In this document: positions 37,720 through 59,304 of the stretch, piece after piece
Layout: each line of letters starts with the position of its first letter
Numbering within the stretch: the stretch's first letter is position 1
Program-made: the position numbers and the translations under genes
The notes under the pieces: generated by a model
What the model was told of the DNA's origin: nothing
Database searches by the model: none
Seen by the model: the letters and a program-made list of their open reading frames with translations, nothing else
DNA from: an uncultured archaeon
GTDB lineage: Archaea > Asgardarchaeota > Heimdallarchaeia > Heimdallarchaeales > Kariarchaeaceae
DNA length: 64,000 bases
Direction of reading: 5' to 3'
Assembly: GCA_964645535.1 (NCBI GenBank)
Contig: CAZYCQ010000003.1
Coordinates: 43,328 to 107,327, forward strand

Positions 37720-38784
37720 GTGAACTGGACAGGTTTTCGAATGGAGTTGATCGGAATGCGAAAAATAAAGAGTAGCTTGATCATATCAATATTCCTAATC
37801 TCTGCTATTGGGATAGGTTTTGCTCCATTGATCTCGGAGGCAAAAGAAGGACCCTCAATTTATGCAGGGCCTCCTTGTAGCCTTTTTGGGACATGTGATA
37901 GTGGCACAACCTATCCATGGCAAGATTCAGATCCCGAAACCCCTTGGGGAATTGAGCGGGTCTTCAACGGAAATTATTATGGAGATCAATACACAACTAA
38001 AGTGCAAGTAGCAATTCTAGATACAGGTATTGACCTTGACCATCCAGATCTCCAACCGAACATCAAATGGGCAGTTGATGCCACAGGCGGAAACAGTGCA
38101 GATGACAAGAATGGCCATGGAACCCATGTTGCCGGCACAATTGGAGCAATCCGAGATAATAACGGCGTTGTGGGGATGTATGCCAATGTGGAAATTTACG
38201 CCATCAAGGTTCTTGGAAATGGAGGATCTGGTTCATGGGATGATTTGATCTATGGTCTTGATCTTGCCATGAAGGGTCCAGACGGAGTTGTAGGAACCGA
38301 AGATGATGCAGATGTAGTAAGCATGTCATTGGGTGCTTCAAGTGATCCTGGTACGGCAGTACACAACAAAATCATTGAATTGTACAATGCAGGGATTACA
38401 CTCGTAGCTGCTGCTGGAAATGATGGAGACGGCGATCCCACAACTACAGAGATGGGTTATCCAGCAGCATATCCAGAAGTCATTGCAGTTGCAGCAACCG
38501 ACAAGGATGATACACTTGCAAGTTTTTCAAATTCAGGTGATTACATTGACTTTGCTGCACCGGGAGTCTCGGTTTATTCCACCTATAAGGGAGGAGGCTA
38601 TGACACCCTTTCAGGAACATCAATGGCTACCCCACATGTCAGTGGCCTTGTAGCCCTCTATCTTGCAATGGGTGGAACAAGAGACCCAAGTGCAGTATAT
38701 GATTGGCTGAAAGCAAATGCATTGGATCTTGGTCCTGCTGGATTTGATACAGGTTATGGCTGGGGATTGATACAAGCACCATAA
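37720..38784 (+). CDS. Secreted subtilisin-like serine protease (S8)
   Basis: Catalytic triad blocks AILDTGIDLDHPDL, HGTHVAGTIGA and GTSMATPHVSG. Signal/TM segment MRKIKSSLIISIFLISAIGIGFAPL. The likely start is the ATG at 37756 (or 37741) rather than the GTG at 37720. Confidence 0.9.
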   Translation: MNWTGFRMELIGMRKIKSSLIISIFLISAIGIGFAPLISEAKEGPSIYAGPPCSLFGTCDSGTTYPWQDSDPETPWGIERVFNGNYYGDQYTTKVQVAILDTGIDLDHPDLQPNIKWAVDATGGNSADDKNGHGTHVAGTIGAIRDNNGVVGMYANVEIYAIKVLGNGGSGSWDDLIYGLDLAMKGPDGVVGTEDDADVVSMSLGASSDPGTAVHNKIIELYNAGITLVAAAGNDGDGDPTTTEMGYPAAYPEVIAVAATDKDDTLASFSNSGDYIDFAAPGVSVYSTYKGGGYDTLSGTSMATPHVSGLVALYLAMGGTRDPSAVYDWLKANALDLGPAGFDTGYGWGLIQAP

Positions 38785-38897
38785 ATAGGCCCTAAACAAA
38801 ATTTGTGTTTCCAGAAGCCGTTACTTAAATTCTTCGGCGGTCATGTTTCAATTCCGTAAATGAATAAACTTTAAATCAGAGTGAAACATGCTTTGTT

Positions 38898-41800
38898 GTG
38901 CAACATCGATTATTCGTCATATTTTTGCTGGCATTGATTTTGGTATCACAACCAGCGGTTGCAAATCAGACATATTCTCAGCCAATTGGATTTTTTCTTT
39001 TAGAGGACGGGGAGGATTTCTTTTCAGTCCTCCCATTGGGAACCAAGAAGGATGACAGTGGAAATGTCCACGTATGGTTCAACTATATTGAACCTACACT
39101 CCATGAGGATCAAGAACGATTGGTTGTGCTATATTATGCGGTCATTTCAGAAACAGGGGAGGTGTTCATCAAAGAATTGGATCGTCATCCATTCAGTTTA
39201 AGCAAGGTAGCCTTCTTTGATTGGAATGAACTACGGATTCTTCCAAATGGAACGGTAATGGGAATATTTGTGGCACCAAGTGATTTTGGGGTTGACTTGA
39301 ACCTTGTAAGATGGAATGGAAACCTGTCCGTGATCACACTTGAGCAACAAAGTGAATTTGATTTTTCTGGGGACATCATAGGACCCATTGACAAGCCAGA
39401 TGAAAATTTTCTTTATTTGCTTGATGGAGAGTTTGGGGGGAGCAAGTCCATCATGAAATTGGAGTTCTCAAGAGAAGGAAATCTTCTAAATAAAACAGTG
39501 GTAGGTTTTCCAACTTTGTTGGACGACAGCAAGGAAATTACAGACATATTTGATGCCACTTATGCCAATGGAACATTTTTTTATAGTGTAGCATTGCGTG
39601 AGAATGGAGCTTTTGATTCATTGGGGGTAGTTTCACAGATAAATCAAACTACAGTCTCTTTGTTTGCAAAATCCATGGATTATAACGTGAAAGAGATTGC
39701 AAACATTCCTTTCTTAAGAAACCTGAGACAAGATATTTTGACACCCCGCCTTGTGGCAACAGAAAATGGAAAGCTTTATTCTTATCTCTTTGGATTTGAC
39801 AATTCGGTCAATTTTTTGGGAATTTGGACAAATGGAACTCTGAAAGATATTTTCACAAATTCTACAGAAAACCCATTCCAGCTATCTTTCTTCCCGCTTC
39901 TAAGTGCAATAGGCGATCATCTTGAAATCTATTTCTTAGGAATCCAATATGCACAAGATGCCATTTCATTTACTGTTGATCATTTTACATATTTTGAGAA
40001 CGGCACCTTAACTAAAGAGAAATTTCTTGATCCCAACTTATCAGGAGACATATTTCTTTTCATTCCAGATCCACAGGCACAAGATTTTACAGCCATTGCA
40101 TCCACTTTTAACACTCCTCGGACATCCAGGATAGATTATGGCATTCTCAATGAAACTGTTGGGGGACTGTATCTCCTTTCTTCAGAAAGCCTGCCCCCCA
40201 TAGAACCCATGTTTTTTAATCTTATTCTGGAAAACGAACAGACCACTGCTAAGGAATTTAATCCCTTGATTTATCTATATCCAGCTATAGGAAGTCTCAT
40301 GCTCCTTTTTGCCATTCTCACTTATGCAAATTGGAGAAAGAGAAGACTTGCTATTCCTCCTGAATTGCAGAAGCTTCTGGACACCAAACCTGAATTGATT
40401 TCGGAAGGTAAAGAGGTAGAAAAGTTTGTTCATAGGTTGAGATTGAATTTAATTTATCTTAGAAGCAATGCGAAAAGAATCATCAGAACAATTCTCATAA
40501 TGTTTATCCCAGCGCTCTTATTTTCGACCCTTATATTGGGAATTCTTACATATCAAGCAAATCTGCTAAGCACCTATCAAGCACAAAATCCCTTGAATGA
40601 TATTGAAGACTTAAGTCTCGAGTCCAATATGAAAACAGATTTTACATGGACCAATCTCTGGTTCAGCGATGAATTCCAAGAGTCAAATTTCAGTGAGGTG
40701 GATTTTGCAATTCCTGAACAACTGTCTTCTCAATCCCTTAAGTCATTTGGAATTGAGGATTTGGGATTTAGATTATCTTCAGTTGTGACCTTCCCGCTTT
40801 TTGAACCTGTGTTCCTTAATCTCACCTTTGGAGAGGAAAATATTCAGGTCAATCTTCCTTTTCCCAGAGAATTTGGTGTGGTGGATCAACGTTGGTTTCA
40901 ATACCTAACAGACCATTTGATTCGAGGGCGTCTTCCTCAACATCCAGGAGAGGTACTAGTACTTGATTCTTGGTATGTTGAACCGGTTGCCTTTCTTCCT
41001 GATGAGCCATCAGGTGTGATTTGGGATGTAGGTTCAACCATTGAAGTGGCAGCTTCGGAATTGGATGTATTTCTTAACAGCACCGTTCAGGGACTTAAAC
41101 AGAATGTAACTGTTGTGGGTGTACTTGAGAGAGTAGAAAGCCTGCCATTTTCGGAAGTGAAAGAGTGGACCGAAAAACTGAATACTACCACCAAAGGTCT
41201 CAGACTATTGGACAAAGTACCGTTTGTTACGTTTTCACACCTGATGGGGAAGTTTCTCAATGAATTTTCAAGATTAAGCCTGCGTCCGACAGCACATATA
41301 AACATGAGATATGAAGTTGAAAAGGTGAATCGTGATGCAATTCCAGAATTGGTTCAAAATCTGAAGGAAATGGGAAATGAAACCTTACGGTTTACTGGTT
41401 TTACTTGGACGGGAAATTATTCAAGCAAGAGAATTGTGGAATTTTTGGAAGGATACTATCTTGCGAGTCGGGACATTCAATTGGAAACAGTGGTATTGAT
41501 TGTTCCGATTTTAGCGCTTGCAGTCTTGGTCACTTATGATGCACTGGGCATGAACCGATTGTCGATTACAGAGGAAATCAGGAGGTTCAAACGAGAGGGC
41601 ATGAGAACTGAAAGAATTGTACTACTGCTTTTGGCTGAGCAGGCCATGACGACGTTAGCATCAATAATCCTATCTCTAGCAACAGTAAATTATGCAACTC
41701 AGGAAATGATTAGGTTTACAGGTTACTTTGAACATGGAGACGTTTTTGTTCCACAGGTAACTTGGGAGCAATTGCCTTGGATTGGAATAGGGACATTCTT

Positions 41801-43340
41801 GGGTCTATTCGTACTGGGGTCAATCAATTCATTGACGGTTCTTTTCCGCAGGGAAGAGGCTAAGTTCGAAACAATGTTGGCCGGCATTCAATGGGATATC
41901 TTGGCGGTAATTTTTGGCCTTTCCCTTGTATTGATCAGTGATTTCCTAACGGGCTTTGTCGCTTCATCCCTAGATGAGAAAAATGAATTAGCTTCCGATC
42001 TTCCATTTCTTACAGTTAAAACGATTTCAACCATTATTGCAACATTAGGAATTCTTTTAGTACTCTCAAAACTCCTTAACCGATTTTTCTCCATCATTGG
42101 CTTCGTGGGTTGGAAAACCGTCAAGAGAAAGGAAGGACTGATATTCAAGGGCTTTCATATGCATATCGGTCTTTATGGAAGATTACTCATTGTATTTCTG
42201 ATCAGTATTTTCCTTGTGGTACCAATGTTCACCATTCCGGTTTCACTGAACAATGAATACAAAGTTTCAGCCTACAATGAGTTTTCAACAGATATCAGTG
42301 TACTTGAGTGGCATGCCGTGCCAAATCTTACACGGAGAGAAGTCTTAGGTATTGATGGAATTAAAAGCCATTCAGAATATTTCATCGGAATTGTGCCTTT
42401 TGCCAATGACCTAAAGGCATTAGTACTTGCCATTAATACCTCCACGTTCCTTTCAAGCATTTATGTTCCGAACAAATATCTTCCGGATTATGGGATCAAT
42501 CTTTCAGTAGTAGAAGATTTGAAAGAAGGTGAATGGTTGGGAAACAAGGCATTTTTGGAAAGAAATGCCTTTGACCCAGGAGATCGTCCGCTTTTCAGAT
42601 TTGAACATACATCAAAATCATACCCAATGAAGGTAAAGGCAGGATTCGACCAATTCCCCATACTTAAGCGTGAAGCAGTACGGCTTAATGATCCAATTGC
42701 CTATCCGCTTCAGATGGTAATTTCCTTGGAAACCCTCAAGGAGATACAGGACATATATTTGTTCCAAAAAACGGAAACATCTTCAGAAACTGCCAGAAGG
42801 CTTGAGGAGAGAAATCTACTGATCAGAAGCAAGAGGATTGACCAAGTGCCTGAAATGGTGGAAGAAATTAAATCGCTTACCGGAAGACGAATTGAGCATA
42901 TCAACACCTTCATTAATAAACAACGCCATCCGTTTTTCAGGGCATTTGAATTTCTCACCCACTTGAGTTTAATAACGGCAGCCCTATCTCCATTACTCGC
43001 CACCTTTGTGCTAGCTAAGCTTCTTTTTGAAAGAAGAAAAGACGAATGGGAGGTGTACTATAGAATTGGAATTTCCAAAGGGTTTTTCATTTTCCAAGTG
43101 ACCCTTGAATTGATTCTTTCAACGCTTTTACCGAGTTTGCTAGGTATTATAGTTGGAAGAATTTGGACTGAGAACAATGGATCACAACTTTTTGGCCTTG
43201 AAGGAAGAAAAATTGAACGGATGGAAATGACAGATTGGATATATGCTTGGGTAGGTATTCAGATCATTCTCTCCCTTTTCATTTGGATACAACAAATGAA
43301 TAGCATGCTCAAACGGCATATCAAGGAGGTTAGGCTGTGA
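38898..43340 (+). CDS. Giant (1480 aa) ABC-transporter permease with two FtsX/MacB-type 4-TM modules and large extracytoplasmic domains
   Basis: N-terminal signal peptide and a ~450-aa sequon-rich domain. FtsX-like blocks VLIVPILALAVLVTYDALGMNRLSITEEIRRFKREGMRTERIV (~41500-41630) and LITAALSPLLATFVLAKLLFERRKDEWEVYYRIGISKGF (~42960-43090). GTG start, with the stop overlapping the GTG start of the ATPase gene. Confidence 0.8.
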   Translation: MQHRLFVIFLLALILVSQPAVANQTYSQPIGFFLLEDGEDFFSVLPLGTKKDDSGNVHVWFNYIEPTLHEDQERLVVLYYAVISETGEVFIKELDRHPFSLSKVAFFDWNELRILPNGTVMGIFVAPSDFGVDLNLVRWNGNLSVITLEQQSEFDFSGDIIGPIDKPDENFLYLLDGEFGGSKSIMKLEFSREGNLLNKTVVGFPTLLDDSKEITDIFDATYANGTFFYSVALRENGAFDSLGVVSQINQTTVSLFAKSMDYNVKEIANIPFLRNLRQDILTPRLVATENGKLYSYLFGFDNSVNFLGIWTNGTLKDIFTNSTENPFQLSFFPLLSAIGDHLEIYFLGIQYAQDAISFTVDHFTYFENGTLTKEKFLDPNLSGDIFLFIPDPQAQDFTAIASTFNTPRTSRIDYGILNETVGGLYLLSSESLPPIEPMFFNLILENEQTTAKEFNPLIYLYPAIGSLMLLFAILTYANWRKRRLAIPPELQKLLDTKPELISEGKEVEKFVHRLRLNLIYLRSNAKRIIRTILIMFIPALLFSTLILGILTYQANLLSTYQAQNPLNDIEDLSLESNMKTDFTWTNLWFSDEFQESNFSEVDFAIPEQLSSQSLKSFGIEDLGFRLSSVVTFPLFEPVFLNLTFGEENIQVNLPFPREFGVVDQRWFQYLTDHLIRGRLPQHPGEVLVLDSWYVEPVAFLPDEPSGVIWDVGSTIEVAASELDVFLNSTVQGLKQNVTVVGVLERVESLPFSEVKEWTEKLNTTTKGLRLLDKVPFVTFSHLMGKFLNEFSRLSLRPTAHINMRYEVEKVNRDAIPELVQNLKEMGNETLRFTGFTWTGNYSSKRIVEFLEGYYLASRDIQLETVVLIVPILALAVLVTYDALGMNRLSITEEIRRFKREGMRTERIVLLLLAEQAMTTLASIILSLATVNYATQEMIRFTGYFEHGDVFVPQVTWEQLPWIGIGTFLGLFVLGSINSLTVLFRREEAKFETMLAGIQWDILAVIFGLSLVLISDFLTGFVASSLDEKNELASDLPFLTVKTISTIIATLGILLVLSKLLNRFFSIIGFVGWKTVKRKEGLIFKGFHMHIGLYGRLLIVFLISIFLVVPMFTIPVSLNNEYKVSAYNEFSTDISVLEWHAVPNLTRREVLGIDGIKSHSEYFIGIVPFANDLKALVLAINTSTFLSSIYVPNKYLPDYGINLSVVEDLKEGEWLGNKAFLERNAFDPGDRPLFRFEHTSKSYPMKVKAGFDQFPILKREAVRLNDPIAYPLQMVISLETLKEIQDIYLFQKTETSSETARRLEERNLLIRSKRIDQVPEMVEEIKSLTGRRIEHINTFINKQRHPFFRAFEFLTHLSLITAALSPLLATFVLAKLLFERRKDEWEVYYRIGISKGFFIFQVTLELILSTLLPSLLGIIVGRIWTENNGSQLFGLEGRKIERMEMTDWIYAWVGIQIILSLFIWIQQMNSMLKRHIKEVRL

Positions 43341-45016
43341 ATTGGGCGGTCGAAGTTGAAAATGTGGTCAAAATCTATCGGCATAAGTTTGATGGAACAA
43401 AAATTTCTGCCCTTCAAGGTTGCGATCTGCTGGTGAGAAAAGGAGAAGTCCTAGCCGTTATTGGACCCTCTGGAGCAGGGAAGTCCACATTGCTGCGATT
43501 GATTGCAGGAATAGAACAGCCCTCTAGTGGAAGAATCTCAATTGGTGGAATCTCAATCCAAGATTGGGATGAAACCAGAAGGAGGGAATTTCGGAGAAAA
43601 TTCATCGGTACATTTTCACAGCATGCCAGAGATAATCTAGATCCGGATATGAAAGTTTCCGAGGCAATTGAATGGGAACTAATAAATGCAGATTGGAAAC
43701 GGGATGAAATTGCACCTCGAATTGCAAGGGTTCTTGAAAGATTGAATATTGCCGGATTGAGAAACTCGCTTTGCAGAAACCTATCCGCTGGAGAGGCCAT
43801 GCGAGTTTCACTTGCAAAGGCCATTGCAAAAAAACCCTTTGTGGTTCTAGCGGATGAACCTTCCGGTCAACTTGACACTGAGAATATGAACCTACTCTTC
43901 AAGCTGATGAAAGAAGCCGCTAAGGAAGGAACGGCAATTGTCGTTGCCACACATGACACAAGGTTCCAAGCCCTTGCTGACAGATCTGTCATGATCCTCG
44001 AGGGAAAACTCGCTTCTGAAGAAGAAGGCATTGATTTGCTGCAACAGCATTTGGATCTTGACAAATTGCGAGAGCAAGGAGAATTGACAAGAACTGTAAT
44101 TGTCGATTCAACCAAACATATTCGTCTTCCATCTCCAGTAATCTATACCTTGGAACTAAATCGAAAAGCAAAAATTGTAATTGATTTCAGAACCGGAAAT
44201 GTTCGTCTTGAAAAACATCCTGAAGATGACCAATTCATTGTGGATGCAGAAACAAAGGAACCAGAGCTGAAATTTTCAAGGGAAAATGTACAGAAGAGGC
44301 CGTTCATTACATTTGAAAAAGTCAACAAAAGCTACGATGGAAAAACCAAAATTGATGTGATCAAGAATCTTGATTTGGAAATTCTTGAAGGAGAATTTGT
44401 AGTACTTTTAGGACCTTCAGGGGTAGGCAAGACTACCCTAATTGGCATGATTTCAGGACTTGAAAAACCTACAAGTGGAACTCTTTCTGTCAAAGGGACT
44501 CAACTTGAAAAAATGTCTGTAGGAGAGCTTTCCGCGTTTAGGAAGAAAAATATTTCATTGCTTACACAGAATTACATCCTTCACCCATATCTGACTGTTG
44601 AGGAGAACATTGCCTTGAGTTACAGAATGATGGATCAGGAGGTAGATAGGAAGAGCATAATGGCAGTCCTCAATAAATTGGAAATGACCCGGTATGCCAA
44701 TGTGTATCCCGGAGAGCTTTCCGGTGGACAAAGACAAAGAGTTGCATTCACATCCGCCTTTCTCAAGCCAAATTACGATCTTATTCTCCTTGATGAACCA
44801 ACTGCCAATCTTGATTCAATTCTTGCACGAAAAATCATGAATCTGCTTACAGAGCTGGCAGAGACAGGAAAGACAGTTCTTCTTGCAACCCATGATCTGA
44901 CAATGGTTCGACCGGGTTATAGGGTGTTGAGGATCAAGGAGCAAAGAATCTTCGAAGATGTCATTGCAACGGAAGAATATTGCAACAACCTAAAGAAGGA
45001 ATATTTTCATCAATAA
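43337..45016 (+). CDS. ABC transporter ATP-binding protein with two tandem nucleotide-binding domains
   Basis: NBD1 has GPSGAGKST, a degenerate signature LSAGEAMRV, and VVLADEPSGQLD. NBD2 has GPSGVGKTT, LSGGQRQRV and LILLDEPTANLD. An AGGAGGT SD lies ~7 nt upstream of the GTG start. Confidence 0.9.
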   Translation: MNWAVEVENVVKIYRHKFDGTKISALQGCDLLVRKGEVLAVIGPSGAGKSTLLRLIAGIEQPSSGRISIGGISIQDWDETRRREFRRKFIGTFSQHARDNLDPDMKVSEAIEWELINADWKRDEIAPRIARVLERLNIAGLRNSLCRNLSAGEAMRVSLAKAIAKKPFVVLADEPSGQLDTENMNLLFKLMKEAAKEGTAIVVATHDTRFQALADRSVMILEGKLASEEEGIDLLQQHLDLDKLREQGELTRTVIVDSTKHIRLPSPVIYTLELNRKAKIVIDFRTGNVRLEKHPEDDQFIVDAETKEPELKFSRENVQKRPFITFEKVNKSYDGKTKIDVIKNLDLEILEGEFVVLLGPSGVGKTTLIGMISGLEKPTSGTLSVKGTQLEKMSVGELSAFRKKNISLLTQNYILHPYLTVEENIALSYRMMDQEVDRKSIMAVLNKLEMTRYANVYPGELSGGQRQRVAFTSAFLKPNYDLILLDEPTANLDSILARKIMNLLTELAETGKTVLLATHDLTMVRPGYRVLRIKEQRIFEDVIATEEYCNNLKKEYFHQ

Positions 45017-45018
45017 CG

Positions 45019-45966
45019 TCAACTTGCAAGGGTTATATCCGAATTTGCGTGCCGTGAAAGAATATGACTATATTTTTCTTTTATTTTTGCTGCTTCAACC
45101 CTTTCCATTGCCAATTCCACATATTTCTGTTCCAGCTCGGTTCCCAAAAAGGTTCGTTTGGTATGGAGAGCTGCAATCGCCGTCGTTCCACTTCCCATAA
45201 AAGGATCAAACACCACATCTTCCTTGAAGGAATAGAGTTGAATCAATCGGTAGGGAAGCTCAATCGGAAAAGGAGCAGGATGACCGATACGTTTGGCCGA
45301 GGTTGTCGGAAAGTTCCAGATGGATTTGGTGAATTCCATGAATTCTTCCCTTGAAATTGTTGATGTTTTGTCTTTTTTGGCCCGTTTCATGGTGCCTTTT
45401 GAGAAAACCAAGATATATTCATGAACGTCACGAAGAGTGGGATTGGAAGGACTCTTCCAAGACCCCCAAGCAGTGCTGGAACCTGCACTTGCCCCCTTGT
45501 CCCAAATGATCTCACCTCGTTGTAGATAACCAATGTCAGAAAGGATTTGAGAAACATAATCCGAGATGGGAATATATGGTTTCCTTCCCACATTTGCAAT
45601 ATTGATGGCAACTCTTCCTCCATCAACCAATTTGGGATAGATCTCTTCAAACACATCTCGAATAAGCTCTAGGTATTCAGTGAGTGAAAGATCCATGTCG
45701 TAATCTTTTTTGGCGTTGTAAGGGGGAGAAGTCACCACAAGATGGAGGCAATTGTCAGGAATAAAGGAAAGATCACGGGCATCTGCCTGGACAATGGTAT
45801 TTTTGAGATGGGAAGGCAATTCATTCTCTTCACCTTTGGGGCTATAGTTAGGTGCTTGACGGATTTCCCGGTACATGGCAGATTCGTAAAAAATTGAGGA
45901 ATCGTGATTTTCGCGTTTTGAAGCACCAAAAGAACTAGTTTTCGTCCGTTTTTTCATGACTTTCAC
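45019..45966 (-). CDS. Beta-class N4-cytosine/N6-adenine DNA methyltransferase (N6_N4_Mtase family), SPPY catalytic motif
   Basis: Motif IV VVTSPPY (SPPY = 45718-45729) precedes the AdoMet motif I FDPFMGSGTT, which is the beta-class order. GHPAPFPIELP block present. The ORF-track start is GTG at 45966; the ATG at 45957 (MKKRTK...) is more likely. Confidence 0.85.
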   Translation of the reverse strand: MKVMKKRTKTSSFGASKRENHDSSIFYESAMYREIRQAPNYSPKGEENELPSHLKNTIVQADARDLSFIPDNCLHLVVTSPPYNAKKDYDMDLSLTEYLELIRDVFEEIYPKLVDGGRVAINIANVGRKPYIPISDYVSQILSDIGYLQRGEIIWDKGASAGSSTAWGSWKSPSNPTLRDVHEYILVFSKGTMKRAKKDKTSTISREEFMEFTKSIWNFPTTSAKRIGHPAPFPIELPYRLIQLYSFKEDVVFDPFMGSGTTAIAALHTKRTFLGTELEQKYVELAMERVEAAKIKEKYSHILSRHANSDITLAS

Positions 45967-46291: not shown

Positions 46292-49200
46292 TTACCCTCG
46301 TTTTCGCATCTCCTCGATCTTTTCTGCAATTTGTTCAATTATAATTTCTATGAACTCCTTATCCTCTAAGTCAGAATTATACACCCTGAATACATCCCAA
46401 CCATTCTTCTTTAACAATATGTCAATAATTCGATCTTTTTTGTTTGAAGGTGTATGAAATGTGTTCCCGTCGATATAGATCGCGATTTTCTCCTCTTTAA
46501 AAGTAAAATCTGGGATGGTATATGGCATGTTTATATCACCAAGATCCACCTTTTCCTGTGTGGTATATCCAAAGAGCCTGTGTAACTTCAAATAATTCTC
46601 AAAAATCATTTCAGGCGGGGTTGACGATTTAGAAATCAAAGAAGGCTTGTAATTTTCAGGAATTACATGCTGAAATTTAGGTCTTAATTTAAGAGAGTTC
46701 AAAAGATCTATGGCCAAATGTCTATTCAATAAGTCGTGTATAGGTTGGTTCCAATATGTTTTCATACATGCATAGCAGGATGTTTCACACGCGTTTCCAC
46801 AATCCATTAGTTTTTCGATTGCAGAATCTATAACATTTATCCACTTCTCAATCAACTGTTCGAGAATTCCGGAGCCCCCCTTCATAGGATCGAACAAAAT
46901 CCCATTGAGTTGTTCCTCTGGAGTTGAAAATACGAAATAGTCAAAGTCCTCACGATTACTCTCTAAACTGTTTGAAATGCCTATCAAAATCCCTTCAAAA
47001 ATATTTACGTACTCGTCTTTGGTATCAAATCCCTTCAACAAAATACATTCAAATTCTGATTCATAATAAATCCCAAACCTAAATGAACGACTTCCACATT
47101 TTTCGAGGTGGAACTTCTGGAACTTTTCCAAATGCTGCTCTTTTGTGAAGACCGACCTAACCGCCCCACAATTTGGGCAAATCGGGTATTGAAGTAGGGT
47201 TGAGTCTTTCTCAACTCCGGAATTCAATAACAGAATACTCTGATCGGAAATATGTTCCAATATTTTATCTCCAATTTCATATCTTTTCCCTTCACCATTG
47301 AACTGTTGAGGTTTACCGTTCAGCTTAATAGGAAGAACTCGCCTAAATTCCTCGGCATCTGAATCGACCCTTCCCACATATCTTAAGATAACGTTACTTA
47401 GAGGAATTGCACCAATTGAATATGAATTTTCCTCAGGATTTGAATAGCCAACCCAATCCTCATTTGATTCAATCACCATTTCACCTAAAATTGTGAAGTG
47501 GCGGATATCAATTCCCACTTCACCAATTTTTGAAAGCTCTATCAGGCTTGTACTGAATTTCGCACCTAATACATAAAGGGCATATCCTGGAGAGAATTCC
47601 CTAAGAGCAATCGGAGCGATTCTTGAAAAGGCAAACTCAGGAACAATTGATCTGCTGGGGGGTGGACTTTGAGCGATTACACCTTCTGTATTTGCGGAAT
47701 ATGCAGGCAATAATCCTTGATTTTGATAGAAGTTATATGTATAGTTGTCAAAATTCTTACTCAACATCTTTGTATAAATACGCCTATAAATTTCAAGGAG
47801 GTTTTTTTCCTCCCTATCCAAATCTCTTCGAAGGTTCGAAAGATCTCTGTAATTTTTTTCGGCCCATATGAATCGGGACTGTAGATTTTTGATTACTCCA
47901 AGGAGGGATTCAGGGAATTCTTTAAGTACGGACTTGTGAAATTTTGGATCTGCAACACCTTTGGCCTCCCTAGGCCAGCGGATGCTGAAAATCTTCCGAA
48001 TTTCCTCAACAATTGAACTTTCATTTGCACTTATGAAATCTCTAAGTTCTTTGATTATGGTTTCATTCGAAGGCACTGTTATGTAACTCCCATTTTCACC
48101 AACCAGAAATGATTTCACGAAAGGAGGGAGGATTTTGTTGTAAATGTCCATCCTGTTGTTTCGAATTACTTGTGCAAGAACGGTCGCATGAATATGCTTC
48201 CTTACCATCGTCCGATTTTTGAGATTAAAAACCGGAGTCAATGTTTTTCCGTTCAACATCCGTGACGGATTGTTGAAAAAGTAATCGTCATGTGCGTTGT
48301 TAGTACAGTAATTGAAAATTACGCCAATCCCTTCTCTTCTGCCCACTCTTCCCGCTCGCTGCCAATAATTCGATGGTGTCGGTGGAACATTTCTCATCAA
48401 AACAACGTCCAAACCTCCAATATCCACACCTAGTTCCATTGTTGGACTCGCTACCAATACGTTCGTTGATCCTTTCGGTTTCTTGAATTCTTCCTCGAAT
48501 TGACGGCGAAGTTCTCCGGGAACTTGCGCAGTATGTTCTTTCGGAAGCAAAAGCACAAAATCCGAATCTAAAGTTGAAAGATTGTAATCATCATCTGGCA
48601 GGGGAATTTTCACCAATCGCCCTTCACAACGCCATCCTATGCAAACGGGGCTGGGGTTGGGATGAAGCAGACCACAAATTTGGCATTGATACATCCTTCT
48701 TTGGGATTTGGGAACAACCTTAATCCCGACTTTTTTACCATTCAACTGATAACCTGTTGCCCAAGTTTCGGCTCCCCGTTTAATTTTTACTTCCACTGGA
48801 ACTAGGAGGTTTGTTTTTTCTGTTAGGAATTGCCAGATGTCTTTGAAAAACGATTCCAACGATTTTATATTGATTCCAGATTTACGGACAAGACTAGTAT
48901 AACTTGTTTCATGAGTCCTTGAGTAAAAATTCTTAATTCGTTTCTTGCCACCATCTCCTTTTTCAAATTGAAGGAGAAACGGTGAATGTTCAACGACATA
49001 ATACGGTAGGTATCCAGATAAAACCTCTTGGTCACCTTCCTTCCAGAAACGTGAAAAAATATTATGCGTTTTGCCATACGAAAAGACTCTGTTCTTTCGC
49101 GTTAAATGAAGCATATTTCGAATAATTTCGGTAAGAGTCTCTTCATCGATTGAATAAATCCGAGAAAGTTCTTTAATATGTTCATTTTCTGGATTGAGAT

Positions 49201-51550
49201 CCTCATACTCAATGTTTATTACACCCATTCCCTCCAAGTTTTCCCGGTTCGAATAGCGGTTTGTAATTTCAATTAAAATACGGTATACCAATATGGTTTC
49301 CAAAGTTGATTTGAAATTTTTTGAGAAGGACTCTCCTGCCGTTTCTCCAAATGCATCCGGGAACAAATTCATCGCCAGGTCCCTATCTTCGTACAGAATT
49401 TTAGTTAGTCCCTGCACAAGGTCACCTATTGAAACAGGAATGGATCCATCCTTGGTTTCTTTCCTCAACACTTCAAACATTAAATGACGTAGACGATAGA
49501 CCTTCGCCTTATCAGTCATCCAAGCTACTTGAAAGGCAGCCTCTTGACGGTTGTCCGCAAACATCAGCAGTCGTTGAGAATCTTCCGGAAGGTTGAACAG
49601 GATTTCTTGAGCAAGAATATAGTTGTTTGCCACTTGAATTCCCTGAACCTTGGCCATGGGTTCATACCTGCCCTTGGTGCTGCGTTCACAAGTTCCACAT
49701 CGATTGATTTTCTCCCCTTTTTGAACCAGCGCGAATACCTTGACCAGTTTGTCATGTCCACAGCCTCCAGAGGCACAATGTTTTACATGCTTGTCATGCA
49801 ATGTGCCACACTGCTCACAGGCAAACAAGGTTTCAAAATGGCGATTTGAATCTTCATCTTCTATCCCATTCAAATTATTCGAAAACAATATTCTTACGCC
49901 ATCTTCCTCCTTTTTAGCTTCATAATAATAACACGAGCCATCTGAACTTGGTAACCCCCTCTCAGTGATGGAACCGGTCTTCTTACCCTCGATCATTGTG
50001 TACCGCTGTTCCAAATAATGCTGATTGCAGTTTCGACATATCAAGACAGGAAAATACCGCTTTTCTCCCGTTGGGTTATCCTTCATGTGCAGGATAACCT
50101 TAGTTCCAAGCCCACTCGATACAAGTTCTCCTCTTAACTCCCTTATCCCACTAACGAAATAATGCAGTTTTGCCCGAAACAGAGGATCCCCATCCTTTTG
50201 AGCAATTGATGCCAAGGCGAGATAAAGTAGGAGACTATGAACCAATCCTTCATCCTTGGAAAAACCCAAGTCCCGACTCACTTCGTCCAAGACGTAAGTT
50301 AGGTTTCTCGGTCGTTCCAAGTTTTGTGCAATAGACCTGATGAACTTTAATTTCGGGAGATATTCAAACAAAGATTCCCTCCAATTAGCACTGGGATCAA
50401 GTTCCAAGTTGGGTGCTACATGCTCCATTGCATATCTTACGGCTTCAAAGATAGCATCTTCCTCTGAAAGATTCGAATCGTATAGTTTCTCTAGAAAGTT
50501 ACGATAGACGTCTTCGGGATTAGTTATTTTCCTTGGTTTAATCAACAAAGCACTCCTGATCTGCCAAACTTGCTGGTCATAGCTTGGACCAATAACTCTC
50601 GTCCTTTCCGGAGGAGATCCCGTTAAGCGAAACATGAATTCCTTTGTTTCTGATTCCTCACCTAAGGTTGCACTGGTGGCTATGCAGACTACCTCATCTG
50701 CATCGGCGTGAAAGGTCGCAGATCGAGCGATGATCCGCCGGAAAAGGACAGAAGCCTCTGCTCCAAAGATCCCTCCATAGGTATGTGCCTCATCGATTAC
50801 CACATATTTCAAAGGAGCCCGCTCGAAAAGGTTGATATCCGATTTACGCGTTAGAAGAAGTTCGAGTTGAAACACATTTGTTATCAAGATCATTGGCGGG
50901 TCATTTCTGATCTCTTGCCTTGACACCCGTTGTTCTTCAGGATACACGCGCTTTTTTCGTTTAAGGGCAACTTTATATTCCTCCCTTGTTTGCACTCTTT
51001 CAACAGCCTCTTCTTGGTCTCGCGTATCCCCAGTATAAACTCCAAACGTCACTCCAGTTCCGACCAGAAGCTTGCTGATCCGTTCTAGCTGGTCATTTGC
51101 CAAGGCATTCATGGGATAGATTAGGATGGCCTGAACCCCCGACTTTCCTGCATCCCTCATCTTTAGACAATGGCTAATAATAGGAATAAGAAAGGACTCG
51201 GTCTTTCCAGAACCAGTGCCTGTTGTAATAATCGTATGCTGATCACTTACAATTGACCGGATAGCATTTTCCTGATGCTTATGGAGTGTAAACTGAATTA
51301 GATTTTTGAGACCTGGGTGGAGCAAGCCCTCATCGACAAGCTGAGAAACTTGCATACCTGTTTGGAATTTCCTCTCCAACGAGATAAACGGTCCTTTAAT
51401 CAAAGGCGACTTACTTAAATCGTTGAACGAAATAAGGGTTCTAAACTGTTTCTGCAAATCAGGGTCTGCAAATCGAAACGCAGTTAATTGGTACCTAAGA
51501 TATTGTTCCAACACCTTTTGCGAAAATGTTATGGGATTGAATGACTTCAT
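46292..51550 (-). CDS. 1752-aa DEAH-box SF2 helicase fused to a DUF1998-like Cys-rich module and a C-terminal Vsr/DUF559-like endonuclease domain (DrmA+DrmB-like / DruE-like)
   Basis: Motif I [9 protein letters not shown] (51197-51223), motif II DEAH (50783-50794), SAT, [13 protein letters not shown], then after a ~330-aa insert [67 protein letters not shown]. Several CxxC pairs. [20 protein letters not shown] (46766-46801) resembles the DUF1998/MrfA Zn module. The tail [21 protein letters not shown]...NGWDVFRV (within ~46295-46620) resembles Vsr/DUF559. Confidence 0.85.
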   Translation of the reverse strand: [1752 protein letters not shown]

Positions 51551-51554
51551 CTGT

Positions 51555-51561
51555 TCACCTC
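51555..51561 (-). promoter_or_regulatory. Shine-Dalgarno GAGGTGA for the helicase gene
   Basis: The minus strand reads TGAGGTGAACAG-ATG. The SD overlaps the MTase stop codon. Confidence 0.5.
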
Positions 51562-54500
51562 ATAGGAATTTTCCCAAACCAGTCGACATTTCCTCGTCGC
51601 CGTCACCAAAGCATTCCCTATCATCATGGGTATCGCCATAAATTCTATGCAACTCAGCGTCTTCTGCTTGACAGCGTGCCCATCCATCATCCGTCATGTT
51701 GAGTTGCCAATCAAGGAAACGAGGACCCAATTCAGTTCTTGCATATTCCGGAAGTTGCCAATCCTCTTCAAGAAACTTATCAAATCCCTTCTCCAACAAA
51801 TCTTTATATGCTAGAAGGCAAAAAGTTTGAATCCTCATGGGTTTGGGTTTTTCTTTGTCAACTCTCCAAAAGCCTTGTGGGTTGGATTTGTCAAAAGAGA
51901 GGATGTATTCAAACTCCTCATACGTTAAGTTGTAAGCATAGGCAGCGCACGCGTTTAAAATAGCATAAATTCTTGTTCTCTCATGTAGAGTCAAAGCCCA
52001 CTCTTTGGCATAGAATGGCACTTGATTTCTGAAACAGAGCCAAAAGTGGGCAAATGCGGGTGCATTGCAAACAAAATTCAAAACAAGTTTGGTAATAAAC
52101 CTGTTCGAAAAATTTGAAAGGTGGTTTGGAAATCTGATTAAAGTAATTATATCTTTTGTTAGAGAGCTTTTAGTCAACCAAATTCTCGTTAGAAAATCAA
52201 AGCAAAAGCTCATTAAAACTGAAACAGCTGACGTATAGATACTATTAGTACCGGTCAACGTTGGTAACTTGTGGGTACATGAATAATTTGGGATCAAGGT
52301 AGAAATGAAAGATCTTTGGTTTGTATTGCTCGCGATATCCCTAAAAACAATTTTGGGCATTGGACTGCCAACAATTCGGGTTTTTGCATCCTCTAGCCTC
52401 ATATAGTATTCTGTTACACAATATTGCCTATCGAGCGGGGTTTCCTCAGTCTTTACCCTTTTTGCACTTCCAGAGAGATAGTTTGCTGCTGCAAAATCTC
52501 CGATCTGAATGTGTTTTCCTCCATACACCGGCAAAAATGTTTCCTTCCCATCGTGATAAATTCCGTACTTATTGACGTTGTTCCTGATTTGGGCATCACG
52601 CACAAAAAGGCTGGATGCCCCAGAGGCATCAAATTCTCTCATATACTTCAAGCCCAGATCCTCGAAGTTGGGATTGAGAACCAACTTCCCGTCTTCCTCA
52701 TGGGTCGACATCTTGATCAGCAATTCATACTGTTTTCTCGAGGTGAGAGCAATCAGCTTGAATTGGTCGCCTGTCAGTAGCTCCATTAGCTCAGGGGTTT
52801 GGTTGAAAACATAGGGTTCATCAAATGTTGCGTTTTCCCAATCCTCCAGATCCGTTCGGTAAAATGCCGTGTAGACACCTGTTGCAGGTGCACCTTTTTG
52901 GCAGACGAAGGCCGCGAACATGAAGCTGGAATGTATTTCAAAGATCTTCTTCCGATTGCTGAATGAGAAAAACCATTCCCAACGGGATTGCTCAAACAGC
53001 ATTTTTCGAAGCTCACTGGAACCTGTCTCCGTACCCAAGCCCATGTCTAAAATTAATCCGATCCTACCGCAGGGTTTGGCAATATGTATCGCAAATTCTG
53101 TGAATAGCTTGTAGTAGTTTTTATCGCCTATGCCTTGATACAGGAAAGGAATAGTGAATTCCCCTTCCTTCCGGTCGATAGTTCCCCCGCGATTGCCGAT
53201 GTAGTTAGTCAATGACAGGACTTGGTTGTTGTAATGAAGCCATTCTTTCTGAATCGAATCTGATTGAAGCAGCCTTTTCTTGACAACCTTCATCTCTTTT
53301 GAGGCGTAAATGTCTATTAAGGGATGGTAATTGACAAGAAATTCCTTGGTCTCAACCTTGATCTTCTCCCATGGTGGATTGCCAATTACGGCATCAAACC
53401 CTCCCTTTTCGAATACCTCGGGAAATTCAAGTTCCCAGTGGAAGAACTTGACTTCATTCGCATAGCGGAAGACGATACGGTCAAATTCTGGATCGCCTTC
53501 TGCTAACATTCGTTTGAAGCCATTGCCACTAAATCTATCTTTGAACTTGACAAATTCATCATGAGAGATAAACCAGAGGGCTGTCCAGAGATCCATCCGC
53601 CGTTTTATTGACACATAGTTTGGTGAGGTGAGCAGCTTGTTGTAATGATCGTATTTTCGTGTTTCGTCAAAATCCACGATTATTTGCTCACGGTTCTCGA
53701 TCAAGTTTTTTATTTCGGTATCGATAAACTCATGGAGGGTTGTCTGATTAATGTCGATCCGGGAACCAAGAGTTTTCACTTCACTTTTGAATGGTTTTGT
53801 TTTCTTCTCCTTCTCATTCATTTCTTCCCGTTCTTTGATTGCATTGATGGGAAACCGTGCGGACTCTATTTCCGCCTTCCAAGCACCTACAAGAGAGTTG
53901 CCGACCTTTAGTTTGTGGTCCAAAAATTTGAAGGGAAGGGTATTGTCCATGGTTTCAAGCCATAACGCAAGTTTCGCCAATTCCACAGCCAGTGGGTTAA
54001 TGTCAACCCCATAGATACATCTTTCGATGATGACCCGCTTTAGCTTTCTTACGAGTAACTCCCAGTTGTAGGAACCGTTGCTCACCGTATGGTCTTCATA
54101 TTCCACACTGATACTGCCATTGATCTTGCAGAAAACCGTTGTTCCGTTGATTCGAATACGATTCGATTGTTCAAGGCTCCAAGCAAGTGCCTCGGATAGG
54201 TAGTTCAGGGCACTGATAAGAAAGCTTCCCGAACCCATTGCTGGATCCACGACATCAAGGTCAACAATATCTTCAGGAGATTTAAAGCTCCCATCCTCAT
54301 TTCTCACCAAGGGTTCGAGAGCCCTTCTGACTGTTGGCTTTACCAGTCCCGGCTTGGTGTAGAAGGTTCCAGAACCCTTTCGAGAGCCGTTCCAAGCAGA
54401 AATATAAAGCTTGCCGGGAGGAAAGACCTCAAGGATTAGTTTATCGTATGGAAGGTTCGTTTTAGTAATTTTTCTAAACCGGTCAACAAACTTGTTGATT

Positions 54501-56068
54501 TCTACCCTTATTTCATCTATTTCACTTTGACCAATAACCTCCTCTGAGGGTTCATATGTACCTGTTTTACCCTTATAGAGTTCTTTTAGTTCAAGATCTG
54601 TAAGAGAATTCAGAAGTTGGAGGGAAATAATTCTTGTCTCCTTCCCTGTGTTCAACACAACAGCCACTATGTCTTCTTCTTTGACCAAGCGAACCTGATA
54701 GTCAAGCAATCCTTCATAAATCATCCCAATGTATTCCGTTCCCAGTTCTGCAAAATTGACAGGCATGGTTATGGTTTTTTTTCTGTTTTTTACCGAGGTT
54801 TGAACCGGGGCAAATTTCAGCTTGCTTAATATTTGGTAGATTTCGTAATTGGTAACAATCCAGTTTCCCTCTTCAAAGAACGAGAGAGCTTTTCCGAGGG
54901 GTGTTTTGATTTTATTGCCGGGACGGAAAAGTTCTCCGGAATATGCCGGTATCGAGAAATCTGAAAATGGGGACCCATAATAAACAAGGTTGAATAGGGC
55001 GAGGATTCTGTACCAAGCATTTTTTTCTAGATTCATCTCTTCGGGAGACAATTCGCTTTCCTGTTCTTTTAGATCCTTCCATATTTTCTCTAGAGAATAG
55101 CCCTGTTGATAGATGGGTGAGCTTCCGACAGGCAACAGTCCCCTTGCTTCTGCGTACAGGATGACGATCAATCGGAGCATGATTCTAATTGCAGCATGAT
55201 ATATGGGTTCAAGTTTTTTGGGAGTGATGATTTCATCCTCGGGTTCTCCATCGAAGAGGGCAGAGAGAAGTTTACGGGTACCATCCACAGTCGCAGCCTC
55301 ACCCGATAGGAAGAGTTCTATTGCCTCCCGGATTTGTTCGCCAATTTTTGTGGAGAGAACACTTTGGCTTCTCCGACTTTGGAAGACATAATGTTCCAAT
55401 GGCTTCTTGTGCTCAGACAGAATACCGAATAGTCCTTCAAGAAGGGTGATCCCTTCATCGTTGAGCATATCGTGACAATTCCAAGTAACCCAGGCAAGAT
55501 TGTCAAGAGTTGCGTAGATAAGCCTTATTTGCGAACCATTGGTGAAGATTCCGAAGCGAATTCCATGATCCACCATCTCTCTTACGAATTTTGCCTGCCT
55601 TTGCCTCATTTTGCCAATACCCAATTTTTGGTTATCATGGACAATCATGACAAACAGATCCACATTAGACCTTTTTTTTCCATTCTTAGGTTTCTTCTTG
55701 GAAGATAGCAGGAGATTCCCGATTTGGTTTTCCTCTGCCTTTTGGAAGCTAATTTTCGTCCCATTAGACTTGACAACAGTCCATTTGGAGTGATCGGAAA
55801 GTTCTAAGGAGGTGAACAGTTTTTCAACCCATTTAAACCTTGAAAGTTTGGTCAGATCATTTTCTTTTTGGGCACTAAAGGTCTTGTTCACTTGGAAATG
55901 GTCGAATGCAAAACGCAGCTCATCGATCAAATTAGCCGGAAGGGTGTTCGGTCCTTCAGGAAACAGTTCCTCAATTACGGTTTCACTGAACATGAAACCT
56001 TCTTTTTCAAGCTGGTTCCACCATGAATTGTCTTTGAATTGTACGAGTTGTTTCTGAAGAGCGCTCAT
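51560..56068 (-). CDS. 1502-aa gamma-class N6-adenine DNA methyltransferase of the Eco57I/type IIG/PglX/DrmMI-like kind
   Basis: GTFYTKPGLV, motif I VVDPAMGSGSF (DPAMGSGSF = 54221-54247), IYGVDINPLAVELAKLALWLE, KVGNSLVG, FFHWELEFPEVF, and motif IV GFDAVIGNPPW (NPPW = 53369-53380). There is ~560 aa N-terminal to the MTase core and ~600 aa C-terminal to it. Confidence 0.85.
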   Translation of the reverse strand: MSALQKQLVQFKDNSWWNQLEKEGFMFSETVIEELFPEGPNTLPANLIDELRFAFDHFQVNKTFSAQKENDLTKLSRFKWVEKLFTSLELSDHSKWTVVKSNGTKISFQKAEENQIGNLLLSSKKKPKNGKKRSNVDLFVMIVHDNQKLGIGKMRQRQAKFVREMVDHGIRFGIFTNGSQIRLIYATLDNLAWVTWNCHDMLNDEGITLLEGLFGILSEHKKPLEHYVFQSRRSQSVLSTKIGEQIREAIELFLSGEAATVDGTRKLLSALFDGEPEDEIITPKKLEPIYHAAIRIMLRLIVILYAEARGLLPVGSSPIYQQGYSLEKIWKDLKEQESELSPEEMNLEKNAWYRILALFNLVYYGSPFSDFSIPAYSGELFRPGNKIKTPLGKALSFFEEGNWIVTNYEIYQILSKLKFAPVQTSVKNRKKTITMPVNFAELGTEYIGMIYEGLLDYQVRLVKEEDIVAVVLNTGKETRIISLQLLNSLTDLELKELYKGKTGTYEPSEEVIGQSEIDEIRVEINKFVDRFRKITKTNLPYDKLILEVFPPGKLYISAWNGSRKGSGTFYTKPGLVKPTVRRALEPLVRNEDGSFKSPEDIVDLDVVDPAMGSGSFLISALNYLSEALAWSLEQSNRIRINGTTVFCKINGSISVEYEDHTVSNGSYNWELLVRKLKRVIIERCIYGVDINPLAVELAKLALWLETMDNTLPFKFLDHKLKVGNSLVGAWKAEIESARFPINAIKEREEMNEKEKKTKPFKSEVKTLGSRIDINQTTLHEFIDTEIKNLIENREQIIVDFDETRKYDHYNKLLTSPNYVSIKRRMDLWTALWFISHDEFVKFKDRFSGNGFKRMLAEGDPEFDRIVFRYANEVKFFHWELEFPEVFEKGGFDAVIGNPPWEKIKVETKEFLVNYHPLIDIYASKEMKVVKKRLLQSDSIQKEWLHYNNQVLSLTNYIGNRGGTIDRKEGEFTIPFLYQGIGDKNYYKLFTEFAIHIAKPCGRIGLILDMGLGTETGSSELRKMLFEQSRWEWFFSFSNRKKIFEIHSSFMFAAFVCQKGAPATGVYTAFYRTDLEDWENATFDEPYVFNQTPELMELLTGDQFKLIALTSRKQYELLIKMSTHEEDGKLVLNPNFEDLGLKYMREFDASGASSLFVRDAQIRNNVNKYGIYHDGKETFLPVYGGKHIQIGDFAAANYLSGSAKRVKTEETPLDRQYCVTEYYMRLEDAKTRIVGSPMPKIVFRDIASNTNQRSFISTLIPNYSCTHKLPTLTGTNSIYTSAVSVLMSFCFDFLTRIWLTKSSLTKDIITLIRFPNHLSNFSNRFITKLVLNFVCNAPAFAHFWLCFRNQVPFYAKEWALTLHERTRIYAILNACAAYAYNLTYEEFEYILSFDKSNPQGFWRVDKEKPKPMRIQTFCLLAYKDLLEKGFDKFLEEDWQLPEYARTELGPRFLDWQLNMTDDGWARCQAEDAELHRIYGDTHDDRECFGDGDEEMSTGLGKFL

Positions 56069-59000: not shown

Positions 59001-59304
59001 TGACTGCATTGATAAATGAGTTCATGAAACCAATATTTGTTGGATTTGCTTCTCTGACAGGTGGCATCTCCAAATTGGTATAAATCTGTCTATCAATTTC
59101 TCTCTCCCAGAGGATTGTCTCTTCTCTCGATCCAAAGGATTGGTCTAAATATTCAACCTCAACCAAGTGAAGGTTTTTTGAATTCTCTTCCATGGAATCA
59201 GACTTTTCTGAGGTCACAGATACTACAACCGCCCTGCGGCCACGGACTCTGACAAGCTGACCGGCTTGGGGAATTTCGGGGGAATTTTCGTAACTCCCTC
59301 TCAT
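56065..59304 (-). CDS. SNF2-family helicase/ATPase (DrmD-like), 1079 aa
   Basis: [15 protein letters not shown] (DGVGLGKT = 58825-58848), IVDEAHNF (DEAH = 58492-58503), [38 protein letters not shown]. The C-terminal ~430 aa is unassigned and includes a Lys/Glu-rich coiled-coil-like stretch. The stop overlaps the MTase start (ATGA, 56065-56068). Confidence 0.9.
   Translation of the reverse strand: [1079 protein letters not shown]
56073..56080 (-). promoter_or_regulatory. Shine-Dalgarno GGAGGTGA for the large methyltransferase
   Basis: The minus strand reads GGAGGTGAAATT-ATG. It lies inside the 3' end of the SNF2 gene. Confidence 0.5.

Follow-up and report, generated by a model that had tools for sequence, protein, structure and literature searches.

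A Vsr/DUF559-type nuclease-fold domain at the C-terminus of ArmC in a divergent Type I ARMADA locus of an uncultured Kariarchaeaceae archaeon

ARMADA, the disARM-related antiviral defence array, combines a BrxHII/RapA-like SNF2 helicase (ArmA) with a PglX-like methylase (ArmB) and a YprA-family helicase (ArmC) that is closest to DruE of Druantia (PMC12458937); a "predicted active Vsr-type nuclease" has already been described at the C-terminus of ArmC (Bell et al. 2025, bioRxiv 10.1101/2025.09.15.676423 / PMC12458937). The Type II systems tested, from Escherichia coli NCTC 12900, ATCC 8739 and EDL933, confer broad and non-abortive protection against phages, for which all four genes are needed, and protection is abolished by Walker A/B mutations in ArmA and ArmC and by an NPPW mutation in ArmB (Bell et al., PMC12458937). 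Deletion of armC sensitises enterohaemorrhagic E. coli (EHEC) to several phage families, and ArmC and DruE have been characterised as "resembling fused DrmABC components" (doi 10.1101/2025.09.22.677730). DruE of Druantia III is an MrfA-like helicase with a C-terminal PLD nuclease that degrades single-stranded DNA only with ATP, and neither DNA degradation nor defence survives the substitution E266Q in the helicase or D1740A in the nuclease (Loeff, Chanez and Jinek 2026, doi 10.64898/2026.05.13.724313). In the DISARM branch, by comparison, helicase and DUF1998 consistently occur as separate proteins, and class 1 DISARM has DrmD and DrmMI genes in common with ARMADA (PMC12458937). Here, we describe the C-terminal domain of a large helicase encoded within a 64,000-nucleotide stretch (the window) of contig CAZYCQ010000003.1, from an uncultured archaeon of the Kariarchaeaceae (assembly GCA_964645535.1). 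Very probably, it is the nuclease domain with which ArmC natively ends in a Type I ARMADA system, armA-armB-armC (46292..59304, minus strand), and works by the mechanism proposed below.

The armC gene (46292..51550, minus strand) encodes a YprA-family helicase-nuclease of 1,752 amino acids (aa). ArmC is 34% identical over residues 1-1745 (1,007-1,019 bits) to GLV59818.1 of Dictyobacter halimunensis and MDQ0257513.1 of Evansella vedderi, both entered as "ARMADA Type I helicase" in Table S1 of Bell et al. 2025 (PMC12458937). Against proteins of E. coli, ArmC scored only 200 bits (Type II ArmC) and 218 bits (DruE). The partner proteins showed the same preference, ArmA scoring 544 bits against the Dictyobacter Type I ArmA versus 183 bits against the E. 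coli Type II ArmA, and ArmB scoring 632 bits versus 100 bits against the corresponding ArmB proteins. The E. coli comparators are encoded together with Zorya II on an island of O157 Sakai that bears both Druantia III and Type II ARMADA, and membership of the Type I clade was judged by such pairwise similarity to listed members. The window locus and Type I ARMADA have in common a single-chain YprA-family helicase, a DUF1998 domain, a C-terminal Vsr-type nuclease, an SNF2 helicase and a PglX-like methylase, and both are without ArmD. The gene order is also that of the Dictyobacter locus (SNF2, Eco57I-type methyltransferase, helicase), and armA-armB-armC is the order that Bell et al. call reversed and find in many archaea and cyanobacteria (PMC12458937). 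It was the commonest order among the relatives' loci sampled, occurring in 21 of the 38 whose upstream flank reached 8 kb or more (of 10 kb sought on each side) and partially in 9 more.

E. coli Type II ARMADA (armABCD, ECs_5261-5264 in Sakai) resembles the window locus in its three core genes and their order, and both ArmC proteins carry a helicase, a DUF1998 domain and a non-PLD C-terminal nuclease region. However, the Type II system has armD, encoding a UvrD/GajB-like helicase, and its ArmC, at 2,113 aa, has extra C-terminal domains, among which EEP and inactivated Vsr domains have been predicted (Bell et al., PMC12458937). No UvrD-like open reading frame (ORF) that could represent ArmD was found flanking the window operon, and ArmC ends directly after its Vsr-like domain, which together indicate Type I. 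Furthermore, a hidden Markov model (HMM) of the Type I tail did not detect the tail of the E. coli Type II ArmC. These data indicate that the locus is a divergent new member of the published ARMADA Type I family, and the closest relative of its ArmC among 5.8 billion proteins searched is 35-36% identical.

ArmC is a single polypeptide that comprises RecA1, RecA2 (with insertions), DUF1998 and Vsr/DUF559-fold domains, and all of its ATPase motifs are intact. The RecA1 (DEAD/DEAH) domain (50654..51280, minus strand; residues 91-299; Pfam DEAD, 83.7 bits) contains the Walker A motif GTGSGKT (K116) and the Walker B motif DEAH (D253, E254 and H256), the codons of which were verified, and these residues occupy invariant columns in a full-length alignment of 24 sequences. 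In the same alignment, Q1064, R1065, A1066, G1067 and R1068 of motif VI (QRAGRVGRR) are invariant in the RecA2 core (48335..48529, minus strand; residues 1008-1072; Pfam Helicase_C, 47.3 bits), as are C1584, C1588, C1592 and C1595 of the DUF1998/MZB zinc-binding domain (46763..46981, minus strand; residues 1524-1596; Pfam MZB, 31.8 bits with a cut-off of 24.2). Type I ArmC is characterised by a BrxA-like helical insert following RecA1 and a zinc-binding beta-barrel where RecA2 begins; in the window protein, the invariant cysteine clusters C505/C508, C578/C581, C592/C597, C618/C621 and C956/C959/C970/C975 are compatible with zinc modules. Overall, the protein is approximately 45 aa shorter than the norm of approximately 1,795 aa among its relatives.

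The C-terminal Vsr/DUF559-like PD-(D/E)xK nuclease domain was delimited to residues ~1640-1752 (46295..46633, minus strand) from Pfam, hhalign, an AlphaFold2 (AF2) model, Foldseek and conservation. Positions 46295-46620, where a preliminary description of this DNA had placed such a domain, correspond on the minus strand to the last ~108 codons of ArmC (residues ~1645-1752), and the C-terminus of the translated ORF includes ...YTIPDFTFKEEKIAIYIDGNTFHTPSNKKDRIIDILLKKNGWDVFRVYNSDLEDKEF...; a plus-strand reading of the same positions was rejected, its frame being full of stops. The Pfam DUF559 profile (PF04480; gathering cut-off, 20.6 bits) matched the isolated tail at 25.8 bits (E 1e-5) and the full protein at 20.8 bits, and the related restriction endonuclease family MTES_1575 gave 27 bits, which is under its own cut-off. 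When a profile of 31 tail sequences was aligned by hhalign with a stand-alone Vsr encoded elsewhere in the window, a probability of 85% (E 6.2e-6) was obtained, and the N-terminal Glu, the PD and the KIAI(Y/F)IDG motif fell in register. When the tail profile was run against the PDB by sequence alone, the result was weak, with a marginal match to I-Bth0305I (3r3p; E 0.25) plus two chance matches, and a fold comparison was therefore needed. The AF2 model of residues 1597-1752 had a mean predicted local distance difference test (pLDDT) score of 87.7 and an alpha-beta-beta-alpha-beta core, and its top PDB match by Foldseek was again 3r3p (E 3e-4; template modelling (TM) score, 0.76 normalised to the target). 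The further best matches were the Vsr-like nuclease domains of PvuRts1I and AbaSI and the DUF559 protein NGO0050 (3hrl; TM score, 0.69), the last being the structure that the Type I tail of Bell et al. also matches; E. coli Vsr (1vsr, 1cw0) was not among the 50 Foldseek matches listed. Taken together, these three lines and the active site considered below confirm that the tail is a "Vsr-like/DUF559-type" nuclease-fold domain rather than "a Vsr", and chance resemblance is excluded.

The composite active site of E. coli Vsr, "EDxHD", consists of E25, D51, position 64 (H64), H69 and D97 (Taylor et al. 2011, PMC3239194). By sequence register, all five positions are filled in ArmC, and the putative catalytic set is E1647 (codon at 46610-46612), D1681 (46508-46510), D1694 (46469-46471), H1699 (46454-46456) and D1706 (46433-46435), each codon being verified on the minus strand. 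The spacing from the Asp of the DG motif to the His is identical to that of Vsr, and by our own count the final Asp and the GW motif are also as far apart as in E. coli Vsr. Across 331 ArmC tails, the expected residue was found in 318 at the E1647 column, 329 at D1681, 327 at D1694 and 328 at D1706, and a His lies 3-7 residues past the DG Asp in 316. Conservation of the five catalytic positions at 95% or above across many phyla is the pattern that would be expected under selection for catalysis. The fold and the composite active site (E, D, x, H, D) are thus alike in Vsr, DUF559, I-Bth0305I, AbaSI, PvuRts1I and the ArmC tail; however, Vsr has a zinc site and mismatch-intercalating residues that the tail is without, and the ArmC domain is not free-standing but makes up the final ~110 residues of a motor protein 1,752 aa long. 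With respect to the preliminary description, the C-terminal peptide that it quoted is real and so is the stand-alone Vsr with which it compared that peptide, the Vsr/DUF559 restriction-endonuclease fold that it proposed is borne out by the DUF559, hhalign and AF2/Foldseek matches, and equivalents of the catalytic Asp and His residues are in place at D1681, D1694, H1699 and D1706. Of the two profiles by which it would have had the tail checked, DUF559 gave a match above the cut-off and Vsr did not.

The tail of the window protein is itself atypical of its family in being nearer to canonical DUF559/Vsr than most ArmC tails are, which is probably why the domain was visible by eye. Only 4 of 31 sampled tails reached DUF559 in Pfam at E <=0.01, the window tail being the best of them, and no comparable DUF559 match was obtained with the full-length E. 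coli and Dictyobacter ArmC proteins. This closeness is accounted for by a shorter loop leading from the DG motif to the His, DGNTFH in the window ArmC compared with DGLSKxIH in the family majority.

To place the domain within the family, thousands of relatives were recovered from the 5.8 billion proteins, and the best 120 were inspected. Most of these are ~1,790-1,800 aa long, 31-35% identical to ArmC and aligned over 97-100% of the query, the tail included, and a motif scan located PD...(I/V)A(I/V)Y(L/I)DG...H...G..V..I near the C-terminus of 98. In a sample of 80 ArmC loci from species-representative genomes, 58 had a complete helicase ORF, and the tail HMM matched 55 of the 58. The genomes include archaea of the Thermoplasmata, Bathyarchaeia, Methanomassiliicoccales and Poseidoniaceae and bacteria of more than 15 phyla, among the bacterial groups being Planctomycetota, Cyanobacteria, Myxococcota, Acidobacteriota, Pseudomonadota, Actinomycetota and Spirochaetia; with this spread, the fusion is ancestral and not local. 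When the tail profile was run against 1.84 billion representatives, 1,006 proteins matched at E <=0.001, and the strong matches either were of ArmC length, with the domain spanning residues ~1,600-1,800, or were shorter and probably represent fragments at contig ends or breaks. These data suggest that the Vsr-like domain is an old, family-specific and apparently selected part of the ArmC helicase.

Two further features of the ArmC homologues were recorded. In 19 of the best 120 (~1,960-2,000 aa), an extra LexA/UmuD-like S24 peptidase domain of ~190 aa follows the Vsr-like nuclease (for example P0050, P0055, P0078, P0085 and P0089, and the loci L004:9944-15925, L042:9968-15940 and L011:9992-15946), and the motifs of its Ser (G.SM.P) and Lys ((V/I)KR(Y/F/L)) dyad are intact in 18 of the 19. 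This arrangement suggests a self-cleaving, possibly RecA/ssDNA-triggered (ssDNA, single-stranded DNA) regulatory module; we did not find an S24 domain on ArmC mentioned in the ARMADA paper (PMC12458937), either in its main text or in the text of its supplement, and the window ArmC is without one. In addition, Pfam PF27116.1 was recorded for many ArmC homologues and may represent a domain specific to ArmC/DruE that was curated recently.

Among proteins with known biochemistry, the one most closely related to the ArmC helicase body is DruE of Druantia III, and both proteins combine an MrfA-like superfamily 2 (SF2) helicase with DUF1998 and a C-terminal nuclease. The nuclease differs, DruE carrying tandem PLD-like domains and ArmC the Vsr-like domain, and so do the partners, which are DruH, an exonuclease, for DruE and the SNF2 helicase and the methylase for ArmC. 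PADLOC detected none of the Druantia accessories (DruA-D, DruM/F/G, DruH) among the neighbours in the window, and the matches to DruE, though strong, were partial. By analogy with these relatives, a mechanism can be proposed in which ArmB would methylate host DNA or otherwise license self and ArmA would assist loading or remodelling. ArmC would load on the DNA of the invader, probably at sites that are single-stranded or form junctions, in the manner of its characterised relatives, and would translocate using ATP, feeding the DNA to the tethered Vsr-like domain. This domain would then nick or cut the DNA, with Mg2+ held by D1681 (perhaps also D1694) and H1699 acting as general base. The tail would in this way perform in cis the role that is assumed of the separate PLD nuclease of DISARM and that has been shown for the fused PLD of Druantia III DruE, and we infer that it confers a cleavage activity on the locus.

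Several observations weigh against a catalytic role for the tail within a Type I system. Neither nuclease activity of ArmC nor a nuclease point mutant is reported in the ARMADA papers (PMC12458937; doi 10.1101/2025.09.22.677730), Table S2 of Bell et al. marks the ArmC Vsr domain "active?" (PMC12458937), and the experimental support for ARMADA comes from Type II with its essential fourth gene, armD, Type I being a prediction. Defence by DISARM does not require DrmC, for which no nuclease activity was seen (doi 10.1101/2025.09.22.677730), so that a nuclease effector is not guaranteed by analogy. At the level of sequence, the Pfam Vsr profile (PF03852) is not significant on the tail (14.7 bits, E 0.029, cut-off 27), the zinc-site cysteines of Vsr are absent, with no Cys after the DG motif (GNTFHTPSN), and the His of the window ArmC stands two residues earlier than in the family majority, where the spacing from the DG Asp is 7, although the Vsr-like spacing of 5 is shared by 94 of the 331 tails. 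Some of these points would fit a domain that is catalytically silent and serves in DNA binding, dimerisation or regulation, defence then resulting from helicase-driven displacement or from a nuclease in trans. The "active?" mark and the dispensability of DrmC agree with such a domain, and the same protein family does contain silent copies, as inactivated Vsr domains are predicted in DruE of Druantia I/II and an extra inactivated Vsr, together with EEP, in Type II ArmC (PMC12458937); the equivalent His of I-Bth0305I, moreover, also contributes to dimerisation (PMC3239194). However, the relatives predicted to be inactive were called so for lacking the very residues (PMC12458937) that are all present here, at five positions that are at least 95% conserved in the 331 tails, and we consider a silent domain unlikely. 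Vsr itself acts as a strand-specific or structure-specific nickase. By analogy, we entertain tentatively, while rating it improbable, that the ArmC domain might be a strand- or structure-specific nickase gated by ArmB methylation and not a bulk degrader, in which case Type I would amount to helicase-delivered nicking restriction without ArmD.

Two other explanations concern the locus as a whole and not the activity of its tail. The matches to DrmD and DrmMI make the locus look like DISARM, and standard pipelines would annotate it as such, since ArmA passes the NCBI DrmD model whereas there is no dedicated model for ArmC. The window could accordingly be read as a class 1 DISARM (DrmD, DrmMI, DrmA/B) that lost drmC and then recently fused a DUF559 nuclease to its helicase, and the preliminary description had likewise seen the tail, against the background of canonical DISARM loci, as a possible replacement for the missing PLD nuclease. 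The locus does share with DISARM class 1 a DrmD-like SNF2 helicase, which passes the DISARM_DrmD equivalog cut-off, and a DrmMI-like adenine methylase, and the helicase and DUF1998 modules of the two are homologous in the broad YprA sense. The PLD motif (HxK(x)4D...GSxN) had no strict match anywhere in the 64-kb window, where a single loose H.K....D lies in an unrelated 236-aa ORF. However, ArmC scored 380 bits with DruE (DruE3; 5.9e-114) against 68 bits with DrmA (7e-20) in PADLOC and 21-22 bits against NCBIfam DrmA models with cut-offs of 950-999, and its sequence places it much closer to DruE than to DrmA, as a single-chain helicase and DUF1998 protein of the ARMADA/Druantia clade. The core triad of DrmA, a separate DrmB and DrmC is not present at the locus, helicase and DUF1998 being fused in ArmC and split into DrmA and DrmB in DISARM, and the nuclease of DISARM is a separate PLD protein, whereas that of the window is Vsr-like PD-(D/E)xK and covalently attached. 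Furthermore, 55 of the 58 complete relatives carry the tail, and the fusion is accordingly old and not local; the tail profile matches essentially only ArmC-length proteins and fragments. A DISARM origin is therefore very improbable, and neither a DrmA assignment nor a local replacement by fusion was upheld; what stands of the earlier proposal is that a tethered nuclease occupies the place that DrmC has in DISARM, in line with the ARMADA literature (PMC12458937; doi 10.1101/2025.09.22.677730), in a system that is not a DISARM that lost DrmC. Least probable of all, and with only the slimmest chance in our estimation, is a housekeeping DNA-repair helicase of the MrfA/YprA type with a Vsr-like domain that nicks mismatches or lesions and has no part in defence. 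In its favour, YprA/MrfA and Vsr both act in repair, as a helicase and a nickase, respectively, signs of a mobile island are missing from the locus (no tRNA, no integrase and no GC anomaly), and some relatives have no recognisable ArmA or ArmB nearby. Against this stand the tight, translationally coupled operon that armC forms with the genes of the SNF2 helicase and the PglX-like methylase, the conservation of the SNF2-methylase-helicase trio across phyla, the experimentally proven defence function of the homologous Type II, and the tail itself, in which the residues for mismatch specificity of Vsr (zinc site and intercalating Trp) are not conserved. Type I ARMADA, with the tail as its native nuclease domain, is the assignment that we retain.

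The two genes upstream of armC encode proteins with intact motifs. The armA gene (56065..59304, minus strand) encodes a DrmD-like SNF2/RapA/BrxHII-like helicase of 1,079 aa with GLGKT and DEAH motifs (Pfam SNF2-rel_dom, 68.6 bits, and Helicase_C, 83.9 bits; PADLOC DrmD, 7.8e-202; NCBIfam DISARM_DrmD, 669.7 bits, passing the cut-off of 610). The armB gene (51560..56068, minus strand) encodes a PglX/DrmMI-like N6-adenine DNA methyltransferase of 1,502 aa with intact motifs for S-adenosylmethionine (SAM; DPAMGSGSFL) and NPPW (GNPPWEKIK) (Pfam Eco57I, 81.1 bits, plus N6_Mtase; PADLOC type IIG, 3e-164, and DrmMI, 7e-125); no NCBIfam model matched ArmB at its cut-off. The armA stop and the armB start overlap by 4 nucleotides (nt), and the armC ATG lies 9 nt past the armB stop, with an AGGTGA Shine-Dalgarno sequence 5 nt ahead of it. 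A sigma-70-like promoter candidate (TTGACA-16-TATGAT, 11/12) lies upstream of armA at 59617..59644 on the minus strand, as given by a consensus scan, which is not evidence of function. Among the 38 relatives' loci with sufficient flank, approximately eight (L011, L015, L021, L030, L049, L057, L075 and L080) yielded neither ArmA nor ArmB even when the thresholds were relaxed, and these could represent solitary ArmC or ArmC with other partners. Extra ORFs of ~300-480 aa, or several genes, separate armB from armC at L024:9046-9951, L070:9076-9987, L077:8510-9787, L068:8052-9479, L009 and L016; the window locus has none.

Downstream of armC by 325 nt, a type II N4/N6 DNA methyltransferase of 315 aa is encoded at 45019..45966 on the minus strand (Pfam N6_N4_Mtase, 153 bits), and no terminator-like site was found between the two genes. 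A homologue of this methylase was beside none of the other ~80 ArmC loci, and it has no obvious cognate restriction enzyme; it is probably orphan or unrelated, and outside the ARMADA system. The stand-alone Vsr (25088..25558, minus strand; 156 aa; Pfam Vsr PF03852, 76.8 bits) neighbours a TrmB-like regulator and an S9 peptidase. Vsr is normally accompanied by a Dcm-type methylase, and no C5-cytosine methyltransferase (PCQ/ENV-motif ORF) was found in the window. An apparent operon near the ARMADA locus (37720..45016, plus strand) encodes an S8 subtilase of 354 aa, a 1,480-aa protein with no match in Pfam, NCBIfam or PADLOC, and an ABC ATPase of 559 aa with tandem nucleotide-binding domains (NBDs), the start of which overlaps the 1,480-aa ORF by 4 nt; weak PADLOC matches of the subtilase and the ATPase (mad3/AriA-like) may merely mirror generic domains. 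A very large ORF of 2,535 aa (19..7626, plus strand) lies at the start of the window.

The architecture described here has been published and the system named, and the locus adds nothing new to it in principle. The correct annotation label for the locus is ARMADA Type I. Its unusual closeness to canonical DUF559/Vsr could make the window tail convenient as a construct for testing the ArmC nuclease.

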